Origin: Candidatus Kapaibacterium sp.
GTDB lineage: Bacteria; Bacteroidota; Ignavibacteria; Kapaibacteriales; UBA2268
Assembly (NCBI GenBank): GCA_963665665.1
Contig: OY762428.1
Coordinates: 576,001 to 640,000 of the forward strand
DNA: 64,000 nucleotides
Direction: 5' to 3'
Shown here piece by piece: positions 41,454-48,426 of this stretch. The notes under the pieces are model-generated. The model ran no database searches. It saw only the letters and a program-made list of their open reading frames with translations, and was not told where the DNA came from. The stretch's first letter is position 1. Every line of letters begins with the position of its first letter. The position numbers and the translations under genes were made by a program.

Positions 41454-41712
41454 GATTGTCAGACATGCTGCTAAGAATGTCTTTTATTAATTTACGGCAT
41501 TATTTTCCTAACTCGTTGATTTCTCGTAACAGGGTAAGGAGTTCTGAATATTAACTGAAATAATTGAACAAGCAATAATATAATAATCCGAAATAGTAAT
41601 TCCGTATCGGGTAATTGTCCCTTGGATTTCCACCCCCATCCAACGGAATTTATATACCATTGGATTATCAATATTGCCGGGCATGTCAAACCCCAATATT
41701 TATGAATAAAAC

Positions 41713-41860
41713 AGGTTCTATAACAGACATTGTGGGTAATCAAACTTAAGATTACCGTCAATAAAATAAACCTTATTGATAAAATTGTGAATATTTCCAA
41801 ATCTTCTGACTCTTCTATTAGCAAACTTTATCATAGGATTGTTAGCTTCAACCGCTGCCG
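41713..41860 (-). mobile_element. Degenerate ISL3-family transposase C-terminus with putative right end
   Basis: AVEANNPMIKFANRRVRRFGNIHNFINKVYFIDGNLKFDYP resembles the ISL3 tail; GGTTCT terminal motif at 41713. Confidence 0.65.
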
Positions 41861-42349
41861 GGTGCGCCCACAGTAATGATATCGTTTTAATTCCATCTGT
41901 TTCAGTTTTGATTCCTGGTGCACCCACATTTATTAAACATTGGTTCTCAAATGAGTTAAGATACTGCCGGATCCTTTTTTCTGTATCAAGGCCCTTGCAT
42001 TCTTTGCAGCTTGTTTCAGTAGATGTACCGCCACGACAAAAAATTATGTATATGTCCAATTGGCCGGGAGTATTTTGGCCGCATTTTTTTTAAGTCTGTC
42101 TTTTGTGTGAACACAATCGATAATAACATGAGAGCCAGTTCAAATTATTCTGCAAAATTTCCAAAATCAAAGCTGATTTTGATCGAAAACGAAGCTATTT
42201 GCAACACAAATTCATCCGGAAGTGGGCCGTAAACAATCTTGAGCAAGGAATTTATCAGCAATTTGCTTTTTTTCCACACCGAAAACTCCCGGAATTGTTT
42301 GCCTGAATAATATCTTTCGCCTGATTTATGAAATCTGGTAATCACAAAT

Positions 42350-42495
42350 AAAAAAAGGGGCCTTACGGCCCCTCTGCCCAATCATTAAGGTTGGAGTGCT
42401 GCGATCTCTCGCAGCAGTGGTTAGAGGAGTTTTTAAACAGTTGGTTCAATACCTCTGTAATATTTTATTTTTCAAATAACATCTGTCGCTGTTCT
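42350..42495 (-). ncRNA. Putative structured sRNA, copy 1 of 3 (~145 nt)
   Basis: Own promoter and terminator; hairpins UGCUGCGA-GAGA-UCGCAGCA and AGGGGCC-GUAA-GGCCCCU-U run. Confidence 0.75.
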
Positions 42496-42501
42496 GGCAC
42501 T

Positions 42502-42530
42502 AATATAAAGTATTCTTTTTAATAATCCAA
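42502..42530 (-). promoter_or_regulatory. sigma70 promoter TTGGAT-N17-TATATT (copy 1)
   Basis: Boxes and spacing are conserved in all three units. Confidence 0.75.
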
Positions 42531-42569
42531 ATACTTTTTTTTAAAAAAAATTCACACACCGTCCAAAAT

Positions 42570-42715
42570 AAAAAAAGGGGCCTTACGGCCCCTCTGCCCA
42601 ATCATTAAGGTTGGAGTGCTGCGATCTCTCGCAGCAGTGGTTAGAGGAGTTTTTAAACAGTTGGTTCAATACCTCTGTAATATTTTATTTTTCAAATAAC
42701 ATCTGTCGCTGTTCT
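42570..42715 (-). ncRNA. Putative structured sRNA, copy 2 of 3
   Basis: Essentially identical to copy 1, 220 bp away. Confidence 0.75.
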
Positions 42716-42721
42716 GATGCT

Positions 42722-42750
42722 AATATAAAGTATTCTTTTTTATAATCCAA
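42722..42750 (-). promoter_or_regulatory. sigma70 promoter TTGGAT-N17-TATATT (copy 2)
   Basis: Same boxes and spacing as copy 1. Confidence 0.75.
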
Positions 42751-42787
42751 ATACTTTTTTTAAAAAAATTCACACACCGTAAAAAAT

Positions 42788-42939
42788 AAAAAAAGGGGCC
42801 TTACGGCCCCTCTGCCCAATCATTAAGGTTGGAGTGCTGCGATCTCTCGCAGCAGTGGTTAGAGGAGTTTTTAAACAGTTGGTTCAATACCTCTGTAATA
42901 TTTTATTTTCAAGTTTCTCTCTTTCGTCGCTCATTTCTT
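42788..42939 (-). ncRNA. Putative structured sRNA, copy 3 of 3 (different 5' leader)
   Basis: Core of ~120 nt identical to copies 1 and 2; the 5' ~30 nt differ. Confidence 0.75.
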
Positions 42940-42945
42940 GGTACT

Positions 42946-42974
42946 AATATATAGTTTTTACCAATATAATCCAA
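42946..42974 (-). promoter_or_regulatory. sigma70 promoter TTGGAT-N17-TATATT (copy 3)
   Basis: Boxes retained although the spacer sequence has diverged. Confidence 0.75.
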
Positions 42975-43080
42975 ATGTTTTTTACAAAAAACTTAACAAA
43001 TTTGTTAAGTTTAATGAAATGAAAATTGCAATTTTATTAATAAAAAGAACTTACATAAAATAATTATTTAAATAAAAAAA

Positions 43081-45849
43081 TCATTTTTTTGATTCTTTTA
43101 ATGATTTTATAAACATGATGGCCCTGAATAATCCGGGATCTCCAAAATAATTTGCTTCATCAGAGTAATTTTCCTTAACATCAGGTATGCAAATATCATC
43201 AAATATATTTTCTCTATCCGGTAATTCTCCTGAAATTCCGGTAAGCGAACATCTGTAGTTTCCGGGCAGCCAAAGCGGAACCATATCCCCTCCACTACCT
43301 GAACTATTATTACCAACAAGGGTTCCCATATCATAATATTTAATCAACTTGGCAATTGCGTCAGAATAGCCGCTGGTTCTTTCGTCAATAAGAAACAGGG
43401 GCATGGCGGTAAGCCTGATCTCTGCCGGATCGAGCCAGGATTGAAATATTTTGTAACTTACTGATCCACGGTCGGGATGTGTAAAAACCGGAATTTTCCA
43501 TTTAATTGATTTCTTTGTATTATCAAGAAACAACCCGAGGAAATGCTCGGAAACGTTAATATTCCCGCGTAAATCAAAAATTATGTATTTAGCATTTTCA
43601 AGCATTTTCATATTATCGTATAAGAACTGGTCATTTATTGACGTAATATCCAGATAAATTATATCTTTGTCAATCTCTGAAAAGCTTGCAGGCCTGATTT
43701 CCCGTAACTCATTAAGCAGGGTATTCTTCTTAAGAACAATATCCTTAATATTACCATCTTCACTTCGGATTGTTAGTTCCAGACTATCGCCTTGTATGCC
43801 GGCCTTCAGCATAGCCAATGCTCTGAGATTCTTCCATTGATCTGAACTGCCTGCAATTCTGCCATACAATTTTTCAAGCATATCCTGCGTATCGGTTCCA
43901 TTTATTTTAATTACCACATCGCCGGGCGCAATCTGGTTGTTATTCCGGGCAACATCTGTTATAATCAATTCAGAATTCCGTAATTTCCATATTAAGGGAA
44001 GCCCGTAACGAAAGTTTTCATTAATATTCCATACTCTGCACTGATTATCATTTGCAACCGAGGAAATCATTTCAAGTGTTTCAATAAAATCTTCACCATC
44101 CCTGTCAGTAGCAGCTTTCTTCAATGCACTGTATAATACTTCATTCATTAAATCTTTATTGACATCAGAAATCGTAAAATTTGAAATCAGATTCCAGAAA
44201 TATGATAATATTGCAAAACGGCTTGTTCTGTCCTCCGGATGAAGATTATTTTCTCTCGGCTCATTTATATCCAAAGCATTAAGTATGCCATCGGGCCGGG
44301 GCAAAGTTGACATACTATCAACAAAAACGGACATTGGCACCGAAGCATATACATCTTCCGCCAGCTTGAAATTATAATTTCTTCCGGGCCCGGGCAATGC
44401 AAGCCTGTCCTCAACTGTCGAGAAAATTTTCAGGCTTTGCCGGCTCATGCATCCACGGCTTCTTACCTCAATGTTATAACCGGTTTTCCGATGTTTGTCA
44501 CTAAATATCCAACGGCTGGGCAAATTACCAGGCCGGCTGTCTTCAAAATCGTTGTTTCCAATTTTACTTTCCAGCACCTCCCCGTTCATTTCAAATTGCA
44601 ACTTATCGTAACATACTTCACCGTCTCCGATCATCACTAATCCAAGGCGGATATTGGCACAATTTTCGGGAACAATGAAAGAAACGCTGTCTTTAACCCA
44701 TGTTTTTTGTAAAGCACGGGTTGGATTGGATTTCAAAGAACTGATCATATCATCATTAGCATCATCGAAACGTATCCAGACCTCTCCCCTGCTGTATGGC
44801 TTTATCAATTCGGATTTGTAATAATAGCTGATCTTTACTTCTTTTCCCGGCATGCCCGATGGGTCGATATGCTGCATAACTGCTGCTTCAGGGCGCCTTT
44901 GCGACTCATAAATATTTACCACGTGGCTGCCGGTTCCGGAATTTTCTTTATTAAGCCCGGCAACCTGATGTATCTGGGCTAAAGCAACATTATCAATAGC
45001 ACTGGCCGGTTTGCTGAAATAAGGTTGCGGCTTGATATTAAAATCGGTTTTATAAATATTAACAGAAGGTGCTATTGGCAAAATTACATTTTTTAACCTT
45101 TCAACAAGATCACTATTATTTTCCGCTTTCTCGATATACTCCATTCCGAGTAAAGTAAAGCGCATTATATTTATCTGTTTAATTTCCGCGCTTGGATGGA
45201 AATAAGTTAAAGGACCCAAAATTTTTACAAATGCAGCCAGATTTTTCAATCCCTGATCTGATAGCGGAGCTGGTTTTACAAAAGCTGATTTATCTTCAAC
45301 TACAACCTCTATGCTGATATCATCAATCCATACCCTGCCGCTTCCCCAGAACATTGCACCAAAATTCAAAACAGTGGCATACTCGGAAATTTCCGTCTCT
45401 ATCTGATAATGATCCCACATATTCAAAACTATTGGATTATCCTCCATCCTGTTGATCATTCCCTGCTGATTGTTCGCAAACCTCTCGCTTATCCAAAGGT
45501 GAGCGCTGCCGTTATCCCCTGTTACTTCAGCTTTGACTGCCGCCCTTAAAATAATTCGTTTGCCCCTGTATGGGAAAGCATCAATACTTTGCATTACCGA
45601 ACCGTAAAGCGTATCTGCAAATCCTTCTGCATGAAGCAAAAAGGACTGATTGCCCTCGTATTTTTCGTCGTTGACTAATTCAGCAGTGTATCCGAGTTTT
45701 GCAGCGTAGGAAGGTATCTTCCATCCAATTGGTAAAGACCCCGGAGCACCATCCTCGAAATCAAGGTTGACGGGTTGAATTAATGCCTGAGCATATATGT
45801 TATAAGCAAACAAAAACAGAACTAAGGATAATTTTAATATTTTTTGCAC
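43081..45849 (-). CDS. S41-family peptidase-like protein with two N-terminal CBM-like domains and a PDZ domain
   Basis: NLDFEDG...GW domains; PGDVVIKING; IIFDLRGN; TSGYSD; TLVG. Confidence 0.8.
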   Translation of the reverse strand: MQKILKLSLVLFLFAYNIYAQALIQPVNLDFEDGAPGSLPIGWKIPSYAAKLGYTAELVNDEKYEGNQSFLLHAEGFADTLYGSVMQSIDAFPYRGKRIILRAAVKAEVTGDNGSAHLWISERFANNQQGMINRMEDNPIVLNMWDHYQIETEISEYATVLNFGAMFWGSGRVWIDDISIEVVVEDKSAFVKPAPLSDQGLKNLAAFVKILGPLTYFHPSAEIKQINIMRFTLLGMEYIEKAENNSDLVERLKNVILPIAPSVNIYKTDFNIKPQPYFSKPASAIDNVALAQIHQVAGLNKENSGTGSHVVNIYESQRRPEAAVMQHIDPSGMPGKEVKISYYYKSELIKPYSRGEVWIRFDDANDDMISSLKSNPTRALQKTWVKDSVSFIVPENCANIRLGLVMIGDGEVCYDKLQFEMNGEVLESKIGNNDFEDSRPGNLPSRWIFSDKHRKTGYNIEVRSRGCMSRQSLKIFSTVEDRLALPGPGRNYNFKLAEDVYASVPMSVFVDSMSTLPRPDGILNALDINEPRENNLHPEDRTSRFAILSYFWNLISNFTISDVNKDLMNEVLYSALKKAATDRDGEDFIETLEMISSVANDNQCRVWNINENFRYGLPLIWKLRNSELIITDVARNNNQIAPGDVVIKINGTDTQDMLEKLYGRIAGSSDQWKNLRALAMLKAGIQGDSLELTIRSEDGNIKDIVLKKNTLLNELREIRPASFSEIDKDIIYLDITSINDQFLYDNMKMLENAKYIIFDLRGNINVSEHFLGLFLDNTKKSIKWKIPVFTHPDRGSVSYKIFQSWLDPAEIRLTAMPLFLIDERTSGYSDAIAKLIKYYDMGTLVGNNSSGSGGDMVPLWLPGNYRCSLTGISGELPDRENIFDDICIPDVKENYSDEANYFGDPGLFRAIMFIKSLKESKK

Positions 45850-46893: not shown

Positions 46894-48426
46894 ATGAACA
46901 TGAAAGTGTTATCAACAGTTGGAATACTATTTGTCGGGATAATAGCCGGAATAATCTTAGTATCCGAATTTAACCCGGAATCAGTTTCCGGATTGTGGGC
47001 AGATGAAAAAATTGGAGCAGATAAAGCTCCGGTAGTGGTCAGCGAGCAGGCTAATGCTATCAATAATGCTTATGTTACGGTAAGCGAGGCAGTAAACCCT
47101 ACTGTTGTAAGCATCAGCGTGGTTATGGAAGACAAAGATTATCATCAATACCAGGAAAGATTCCAGGAATTCTATAAATTTTTCGGCCTCCCGGAAGATC
47201 AGAACGCTCCTTCGGAACCGAGAAAATCCGCAGCAGCAGGATCCGGTGTGATAATTACAGATAACGGATACATAGTAACCAATAATCATGTTGTTGAAAA
47301 TGCCATAGAAGGTGGTATTACCGTTACTACTTACGACCAGAAAACATATTCGGCCGAACTTATCGGTGCAGACCCCCTGACTGACCTTGCCGTTATAAAA
47401 ATTGAAGAATCAGGGCTTAAACCCGCTCATTTCGCGAGTATGGACGATATCCATGTTGGCGATTTTGTACTTGCAGTAGGAAATCCGCTCGGGCTGAACT
47501 CCACGGTAACAGCAGGAATAGTCAGCGCTATCGGGCGCGGACAGCTTTACCTGCCCAACAGAAGCAACTATTCGGTAGAGAATTTCATTCAAACCGACGC
47601 GGCTATTAATCCCGGGAACAGTGGCGGCGGCCTTTTCAACCTGGAAGGCAGCCTGATAGGCATCAACACTGCTATAGCCACGAGAACAGGTACTTATATC
47701 GGTTATGGATTTGCCATTCCAATAGATCTTGCTCAGTCTGTTGTATCAGACCTGATAGAAGACGGAAAAATTAACCGTGGATATATTGGTGTGGCTATCA
47801 GAACTGTAACCGACCCGGTTGCAAAAGCTACAGGGCTTGAAAAAGTTTCCGGCGTGTTGGTTCATAATATTAACGAGGGAAGCGCAGCGGAAAAGGCCGG
47901 TATTGAACCAGGAGATATAATTCTGGAAGTTGACGGTGAAGAAGTGGCAACTTCGAATGAACTTCAAAGCAAAATTACGATGAAACGTGCCGGAGATAAG
48001 GTAAAACTTACTATCTGGCGCGACGGTAAAAAATTATTTAAAAACGTTACCCTGAAAGCAAGGGATGATGATGAAGGCGCAATTGCCGGCGAAGATGTTG
48101 ACAACACCGAAGAAAAGGATCCGGCTAAACCGGTAAACTTTGACGAGCTCGGGTTCAGTGTCGAGCCTGCAAAATCTGATGTAAAGAAACGTTATGACGT
48201 CAGTAACGGAGTAATGATAACCAAAGTTATTCCCTACAGCCGTGCTGCCCAGGCAGAAATGTTCCCTCGTGGAATAATCGTTAAGGCCGACCGCCAGAAA
48301 ATAAAAACCCCCGGCCAGCTTAAAACCATTTTCGAAAATAAAAAACCGGGCGACGCTGTTCTGATGCAGGTTAAATATGAAGATACCTACAGGATAGTAG
48401 CAATTGAAATTCCAAAGGAAGAATAG
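46894..48426 (+). CDS. degP: Do/DegP (HtrA) serine protease with two PDZ domains
   Basis: TNNHVV, DLAVIK, DAAINPGNSGG. Confidence 0.95.
   Translation: MNMKVLSTVGILFVGIIAGIILVSEFNPESVSGLWADEKIGADKAPVVVSEQANAINNAYVTVSEAVNPTVVSISVVMEDKDYHQYQERFQEFYKFFGLPEDQNAPSEPRKSAAAGSGVIITDNGYIVTNNHVVENAIEGGITVTTYDQKTYSAELIGADPLTDLAVIKIEESGLKPAHFASMDDIHVGDFVLAVGNPLGLNSTVTAGIVSAIGRGQLYLPNRSNYSVENFIQTDAAINPGNSGGGLFNLEGSLIGINTAIATRTGTYIGYGFAIPIDLAQSVVSDLIEDGKINRGYIGVAIRTVTDPVAKATGLEKVSGVLVHNINEGSAAEKAGIEPGDIILEVDGEEVATSNELQSKITMKRAGDKVKLTIWRDGKKLFKNVTLKARDDDEGAIAGEDVDNTEEKDPAKPVNFDELGFSVEPAKSDVKKRYDVSNGVMITKVIPYSRAAQAEMFPRGIIVKADRQKIKTPGQLKTIFENKKPGDAVLMQVKYEDTYRIVAIEIPKEE

Follow-up and report, generated by a model that had tools for sequence, protein, structure and literature searches.

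The 64,000-nt stretch analysed here (the window) covers positions 576,001 to 640,000 of contig OY762428.1 (GenBank assembly GCA_963665665.1) from Candidatus Kapaibacterium sp., whose genome is one contig of 5,458,198 bases with 38.6% G+C. On its minus strand, at 42346-42980, lie three head-to-tail units with periods of 220 and 218 nt, which an earlier reading of the DNA (the original prediction) had described as three tandem non-coding RNA (ncRNA) genes. Tandem Repeats Finder returned a single array at 42346-42909 (score 1068; 2.6 copies of period 220, 97% matches). When 155 nt of unit 1 served as the BLAST query, alignments fell at exactly three places in the genome, all in the array, with 100% identity over 155/155, 151/151 and 126/126 bases. 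Both results matched the predicted strand, periods and positions, and the core identical across copies came to 126 nt, slightly above the ~120 nt first given. No further paralogs were found in the host's own genome by low-stringency BLAST with the unit, the matches being other promoter regions, for example beside tRNA genes.

The order within each unit was an A/T-rich tract, TTTGGATTAT, a spacer of 17-20 nt, TATATTAG, a leader, the core and the terminator. Between the predicted start and the core lay a leader of ~24 nt (units 1 and 2) or ~30 nt (unit 3). The features are as follows.

42944..42974, minus strand: unit 3 promoter-like site, TTG-N20-TATATTAG (= TTGGAT-N17-TATATT), one letter off the strict form seen at tRNA and transfer-messenger RNA (tmRNA) genes.
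42788..42939, minus strand: unit 3 predicted RNA, ~152 nt, leader diverged and 6 nt longer; putative ends, the 5' A at 42939 taken from promoter geometry.
42784..42909, minus strand: invariant core copy 3 (BLAST identity).
42720..42750, minus strand: unit 2 promoter-like site, by its sequence form.
42570..42715, minus strand: unit 2 predicted RNA, ~146 nt, putative ends.
42566..42691, minus strand: invariant core copy 2 (BLAST identity).
42500..42530, minus strand: unit 1 promoter-like site, by its sequence form.
42350..42495, minus strand: unit 1 predicted RNA, ~146 nt, putative ends.
42346..42471, minus strand: invariant core copy 1, 126 nt, with helix P1 and its inner hairpin, helices P2 and P3, and the terminator (BLAST identity).
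42354-42375, 42574-42595 and 42792-42813, minus strand: terminators of units 1, 2 and 3, each a hairpin then a T run (terminator scan).
43081..45849, minus strand: upstream neighbour, which encodes 922 aa with a peptidase S41 domain; given for context and outside the array.

The boxes TTGGAT-N17-TATATT, named in the original prediction, were present in 3/3 units and can also be read as TTG-N20-TATATTAG; they are sensible only under the host's own promoter type. Among the 36 tRNA and tmRNA genes of the host, TAnnTTTG occurred upstream of 30 and the bipartite form TTG-N18-21-TAnnTTTG upstream of 25. In random 90-nt windows the corresponding frequencies were 3.8% and, for the strict bipartite form, 0.28%. 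The latter is the promoter type described for Bacteroides sigma-ABfr, a name also used in PMC11697453. A relaxed form, TTG-N20-TAnnTTnG, matched 0.56% of such windows and had 1,281 occurrences in the genome, both strands counted. The array boxes appear to fit the housekeeping (Bacteroidota) type of the host, not the E. coli consensus. If the usual distance holds, transcription would start at an A five bases past the box, at 42939, 42715 and 42495. These are the positions near which 5' ends had been proposed; promoter geometry gave them again, as predicted starts.

At the core end of all three units stood AGAGGGGCC-GTAA-GGCCCCTTT followed by a T run. A terminator scan of 42000-43400 listed four sites (1.1 +/- 1.2 in shuffles), three of which were these minus-strand hairpins with a GUAA loop, in agreement with the proposal that each unit has its own terminator. 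The three copies are non-independent samples, and the promoter and terminator counts amount to one observation seen thrice. Another terminator-like hairpin with a T run lies at 42061-42090 on the plus strand, facing the array; no gene could be recognised upstream of this hairpin, and the preceding 246 nt folded no better than shuffles (z -0.11).

The predicted RNAs showed a strong propensity to fold. The unit 1 RNA (152 nt folded) reached -45.8 kcal/mol (z -4.60) and the unit 3 RNA had a z of -4.84, with 0/200 shuffles as good in each case. The 84-nt core without its terminator reached -24.3 kcal/mol (z -4.36, 0/200 shuffles as good), and its minimum-free-energy (MFE) structure made up 19% of the ensemble. 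The three helices and two GNRA tetraloops of the original prediction all appeared in the MFE fold. These were P1 (AGAGG/CCUCU around UUGAAC-(CAACU)-GUUUAA), P2 (UGCUGCGA-(GAGA)-UCGCAGCA) and P3 ((U)CCAA/UUGG(G)), with the GAGA loop in P2 and the GUAA loop in the terminator. The opposite strand folded less well (z -2.89) and lost P1.

No open reading frame (ORF) of at least 50 aa was present inside the array. The sole ORF common to all units has 28 codons, from a TTG at 42449 to a TAA stop in the terminator loop. Its start lies 2 nt past a GAGG, inside P1, and its polar product had no family match in NCBIfam. The units are probably non-coding, given that no credible ORF was found.

Divergence between the units was confined to the region upstream of the core. 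Between units 1 and 3, 61 upstream positions were the same, 38 different and 8 gapped, compared with 126/0/0 in the core (Fisher p 4e-19); between units 1 and 2 the upstream counts were 93, 6 and 2, and the core was again 126/0/0. The diverged unit 3 still kept both promoter boxes as well as the whole core, as first reported, while its promoter spacer and leader had changed.

Part of the stretch was present in 9/11 listed public runs, none recorded as RNA, and the contigs of four runs were compared over 42150-42560. Run X4 is labelled as a different organism; its core was identical, and 0/226 differences were seen in its downstream flank. One X4 contig had the unit 1 promoter unchanged and 9 substitutions between 42461 and 42491, that is, in the leader and the first bases of the window-invariant core. 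A further X4 contig ran from the core into a leader matching that of unit 3 at 29/30 letters shown, and at least three leader versions were present among the two near-identical strains. Terminator, identical 5-letter spacer and next promoter were bridged by an X4 contig just as in the window. The tandem layout thus occurs in a second data set and is therefore not an assembly artefact of this genome, which rules out a concern raised earlier about copies 1 and 2. The unitig depth in X4 (18.9 for the core, 6.1 for the flank) would fit about three copies, though such depths are not copy numbers.

Run X7, a freshwater-sediment metagenome, contributed a 232-nt contig that aligned over 42351-42460 with 7 differences. 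One of these, at 42429, fell in the internal loop of P1, and the other six were placed in 42430-42460 by the from-end rule. By that placement 42351-42428 was unchanged, and these 78 nt span everything from the 3' half of P1 through the junctions, P2 and P3 to the terminator. This equated to 7 changes in 32 nt (~22%) directly beside 78 invariant nucleotides, and the DNA past the terminator was unrelated. From run X9 there was a 47-nt piece only, and run X6 (0.10 share of words) yielded no contig for this region. The pattern suggested by these comparisons is a variable 5' end joined to a frozen 3' body. As the core is invariant in the array, X4 and X7 while spacer and leader diverge, the array is more than a fresh duplication. 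Gene conversion could keep the copies alike within one array but does not explain the pattern in X4 and X7. The leader may simply be unconstrained, for example if it is processed off at the AU-rich stretch before P1.

We further investigated the occurrence of the RNA outside this genome. Rfam 15 at the gathering threshold gave 0 matches over the whole window. With permissive filters (42200-43150) the best match was STnc50, at 30 bits versus a gathering threshold of 55, and the permissive matches (STnc50 and others) aligned only the terminator hairpin and A/T runs. This agrees with the family having gone unrecognised in the original prediction. The BLASTn and covariance-model check in relatives that it had proposed yielded no homologs usable for covariation. 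BLAST with the core as query gave only three weak AT-rich matches (E 0.006-0.009) in 60 relatives; across 254 genomes of the order, BLAST returned a single AT-rich match of 46 nt (E 7e-4). A covariance model of 130 nt including the terminator (R1) had 10 matches at E <= 0.1 in the 129 other genomes of the family, the best five of the 10 aligning terminator hairpins and A/U runs only. A core-only model of 87 nt (R2) found nothing better than E 0.3 in the 129 family genomes. In broader collections, which may omit records of this genome or its close kin, a junction-anchored pattern matched JGI metagenomes twice, both times by chance as judged by inspection and the model; a 20-mer of P2 matched three times across GTDB, in the hairpin only; three patterns had 0 matches in viral contigs, and plasmids and phages gave none. 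The neighbouring S41 peptidase had matches in 122/129 family genomes (best 40% identity), and in the 11 orthologous loci examined no sequence resembling the RNA was found behind the peptidase gene. Beyond this genome the RNA was found in only two close sources, X4 and one X7 contig; the genomes searched included no other species of the host's genus. The RNA family appears to be very narrowly distributed, lineage-restricted and outside the known Rfam families.

We consider it probable that the locus is a real ncRNA array, i.e. three independently transcribed structured ncRNA genes encoding sibling small RNAs (sRNAs) of ~146-152 nt. Its near-identical, apparently non-coding units, each with its own putative promoter and Rho-independent terminator, correspond to what is expected of tandem sibling sRNAs. 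As a whole, the best explanation would be a sibling sRNA array acting in trans, to which we assign a probability of roughly 0.5. The earlier claim of a multicopy sRNA family under selection stood as far as the gene-like units, the lack of an ORF and the selective 3' conservation are concerned; its transcription and covariation parts stay at the level of sequence-based prediction.

Several multicopy sRNA families offer comparisons. In Listeria monocytogenes there are several near-identical copies of LhrC (LhrC1-5), with lhrC1-4 at one locus and promoter activity measured for each copy; CU-rich motifs pair with the ribosome-binding region of the target, Hfq is dispensable for the studied target and the copies are additive (PMC4132741). 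The array is alike in its near-identical copies at one locus and its CU-rich stretches. It differs in having no sequence relation (no Rfam match), in belonging to a different phylum, and in a promoter that looks housekeeping-type, not response-regulator-dependent. Moreover, LhrC carries UCCC in two loops and a single-stranded stretch, whereas the array RNA is without UCCC and its CU-rich parts lie partly in P1 and P3. Membership of the LhrC family was rejected on the missing exposed UCCC motifs.

The nearest analogue in the array's own bacterial group would be FopS/GibS of Bacteroides thetaiotaomicron. This family consists of multicopy paralogous sRNAs of ~65-70 nt at 14 dispersed loci; each has a conserved seed (R1) in a single-stranded 5' part, the terminator as its sole hairpin, and the ability to bind the RRM protein RbpB (PMC11697453). 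The family also has canonical sigma-ABfr-type promoters, a Rho-independent terminator, an Hfq-less host with RRM proteins and, according to the paper, a consensus deposited in Rfam (PMC11697453). On that description the array shares with FopS a multicopy family, the same broad bacterial group, a similar promoter type and terminator, RRM proteins in the host and no Hfq found. In contrast to FopS as described there, the array RNAs measure ~150 nt, carry three extra hairpins and a variable 5' end, lie in tandem and have no Rfam 15 match; on their leader, length, helices and lack of a match, membership of FopS/GibS was rejected. Tandem paralogous sRNA genes also include OmrA/OmrB, PrrF1/PrrF2, AbcR1/2 and the csRNAs; the first 21 and the last 35 nt are common to OmrA and OmrB, the middle is not, and PrrH is a read-through product (PMC4211561). 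Likenesses to these are the tandem paralogs, patchy identity and possible read-through products. They differ in being from Proteobacteria or Firmicutes and unrelated in sequence and structure, and here identity covers the whole 3' 126 nt, with divergence only in the leader.

In the mechanism that we favour, each unit would be read from a near-consensus Bacteroidota-type housekeeping promoter and end at its own intrinsic terminator. The product would be an RNA with a 5' leader free to vary and an invariant 3' body (P1 with its inner stem-loop, P2, P3 and the terminator), acting in trans by Hfq-independent base pairing. The candidate pairing stretches are CUCCUCU (3' side of P1 plus the junction to P2) and CUCC (junction to P3). 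These CU-rich stretches would pair with ribosome-binding sites and block translation, the three copies providing dosage. CUCCUCU and CUCC share CUCCU/CUCC with the anti-Shine-Dalgarno end of the host 16S rRNA, whose 3' end is ...GGATCACCTCCTTTCT. Shine-Dalgarno (SD) sequences are in use in this genome: among 2,924 crude gene starts, 16% have GGAG between -20 and -4, versus 1.8% in a control zone, and G rises to 42% at -9. Anti-SD antisense action is plausible because the genome uses SD sequences. The precedent of the CU-rich LhrC motif, the SD use and the CUCCU/CUCC match therefore favour an sRNA that would occlude ribosome-binding sites. The host encodes CsrA and three RRM-domain proteins, and Hfq was not found in its genome.

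A number of observations weigh against this interpretation. It is drawn from DNA sequence, with transcription being predicted. In the predicted fold, P1 hides part of CUCCUCU, and P3 part of CUCC. Across 4,960 crude start regions the best duplex (-49.7) was no better than background (-46.3 and -43.6 in shuffles), in a comparison that comprises two shuffles and energies that look inflated by long loops. At the same 4,960 starts the longest contiguous matches of three candidate seeds were no better than those of three shuffles each, and exact antisense matches elsewhere in the genome reached a maximum of 14 nt outside AT-rich stretches. No diverged homologs were found and hence no compensatory base change backing P1-P3. 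The -7 box of the array promoters is one letter off the local consensus, and a generic E. coli-type sigma-70 scan did not list the array boxes. That scan gave 6 sites (4.9 +/- 2.0 expected), two of them inside the array and both in leaders; the host follows a different consensus. Gene conversion, not selection, could account for some of the core identity, and the most conserved part includes the terminator, which would be conserved anyway. The anti-SD antisense option of the original prediction thus kept its plausibility from SD use and gained no support from the target scans, and we hold the anti-SD pairing mechanism only tentatively.

The first alternative is a protein-binding or scaffold RNA, in which the structured 3' body would serve as a handle for a protein, such as an RRM protein, that it sequesters or assembles. 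The pattern, variable at the 5' end and frozen in the 3' body, fits such an RNA about as well as it fits a base-pairing sRNA. Conservation is highest in the structured 3' 78 nt, not in a single-stranded seed, and lowest at the 5' end, the site of many sRNA seeds; the RNA has a well-defined fold, and the scans returned no target signal. The three RRM proteins and CsrA, the lack of a detected Hfq, and the binding of multicopy Bacteroides FopS sRNAs to RbpB (PMC11697453) are also in its favour. Repeated binding motifs are missing, however, and no partner gene is linked to the locus. The protein-titrating option raised in the original prediction is disfavoured as a CsrA type: CsrA is encoded, yet there is no GGA anywhere in the core or leaders, which makes a CsrA sponge unlikely, and the CsrB/RsmZ type needs many GGA, mostly in hairpin loops. 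We regard a scaffold role as unlikely, while taking it seriously.

Alternatively, the array could be a functionless or decaying tandem duplication of intergenic DNA with promoter-like and terminator-like parts, its core homogenised by gene conversion. No more than 6 substituted and 2 gapped columns separate the upstream parts of units 1 and 2, which makes at least one of the duplications recent; only very close relatives carry the element, and the same intergenic region has two other dispersed repeat families. However, gene conversion within the array leaves unexplained the 78 unchanged nucleotides of X7 beside 7 changes in 32 nt, and why the near-identical strain X4 changes only the leader. 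The conserved block is also the part that folds, it stops at the terminator, and the diverged unit 3 retains its promoter boxes. On this evidence a functionless repeat is improbable.

The units might instead encode modular RNAs, with hypervariable 5' specificity segments on a common 3' protein-binding scaffold bearing the two GNRA loops. We consider this a long shot; if it were true, the array would represent a programmable RNA-protein system with its protein partner encoded elsewhere, not ordinary redundant sRNAs.

Three small-protein genes, the 28-codon ORF being translated into perhaps a Cys-containing peptide, are very improbable. The ORF is identical in 3/3 units with GAGG just upstream, and precursors of modified peptides are known to be encoded by identical genes in tandem. 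Against this, only 2 nt separate the GAGG from a TTG start that lies within helix P1, the stop codon falls in the terminator loop by geometry, no family match was obtained, and no modifying enzyme or exporter is nearby. No change, synonymous ones included, was seen over 22 of the 28 codons beside sequence diverged by ~22%, which points to constraint on nucleotides rather than on a peptide.

A cis-acting or mobile-element feature, such as repeat-element ends or insulating terminators behind the S41 peptidase gene, is just as improbable: the array does lie ~100 nt behind that gene on the same strand and the downstream DNA is rich in dispersed repeats, but each unit has its own putative promoter, no copies occur elsewhere in the genome or in the viral, phage and plasmid collections, no transposase or integrase genes are present (the only such match, to ISL3, is not significant) and in the 11 relatives examined the peptidase ortholog has nothing similar behind it.

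Other candidates were tried and rejected. A riboswitch was dismissed on the lack of an Rfam match and of a downstream gene, and 6S RNA (RF00013; a ~180-nt rod with a central bubble) on the lack of an Rfam match and on the three short hairpins, which do not form a rod. For a type I toxin-antitoxin system (Ldr/Rdl, Ibs/Sib), the shared 28-aa ORF is polar, not hydrophobic; contrary to an antisense RNA of that type, the scan found no plus-strand promoter or terminator inside the units. Leader changes in X4 were not confined to adenines, which dismissed a diversity-generating retroelement.

The neighbours of the array are envelope-type proteases, comprising, besides the S41 peptidase, a trypsin-PDZ (HtrA/DegQ-like) protein at 46894-48426 on the plus strand. 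Downstream, 41454-42345 is a stretch of ~890 bases without a credible gene. ORFs of 62-113 aa in this stretch had no Pfam or NCBIfam match better than E 0.01, the best hint there was the C-terminus of an ISL3 transposase (E 0.18, not significant), and the 890 bases gave no Rfam match. Two dispersed repeat families, A (41485-41553) and B (41570-41713), lie side by side here, ~600-850 bases downstream of the array. Family A has 16 genomic copies and family B 21, at ~66-84% identity and mostly outside ORFs, and neither had a Rfam or Pfam match. Family B keeps a block around TGCCGGGCATAGCAAAC and forms a long hairpin on the minus strand (z -2.84); it could be a miniature inverted-repeat transposable element (MITE)-like element or another multicopy RNA.

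Two tRNA loci elsewhere in the genome were also noted. At G000:C1:1891309-1892135, ARAGORN reported two long tRNA-Cys(GCA) genes (93 and 91 nt) beside a 91-nt tRNA-Ser(GCU), and a normal 72-nt tRNA-Cys elsewhere in the genome. The long genes may be long-variable-arm or selenocysteine (Sec)-like tRNAs with a Cys anticodon. At G000:C1:1029572-1031104 the tRNA-Val(UAC)/tRNA-Leu(CAA) pair was tandemly duplicated, in the order Val-Leu-Val ... Leu-Val.

Tandem sibling sRNA arrays are known as a kind, and the new element here would be this RNA family, which is otherwise an ordinary kind of element. A single narrow literature query (Ignavibacteri* with sRNA), judged by its listing, found nothing related. 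The host lineage combines Bacteroidota-type promoters, appreciable SD use and no detectable Hfq. If transcribed, the array would represent an sRNA family from a lineage that branches deeply among the bacteria bearing the type IX secretion system (T9SS; Bacteroidota-type) and has been little studied. An anti-SD-like multicopy sRNA, if true, would offer an entry point to post-transcriptional control in such organisms.

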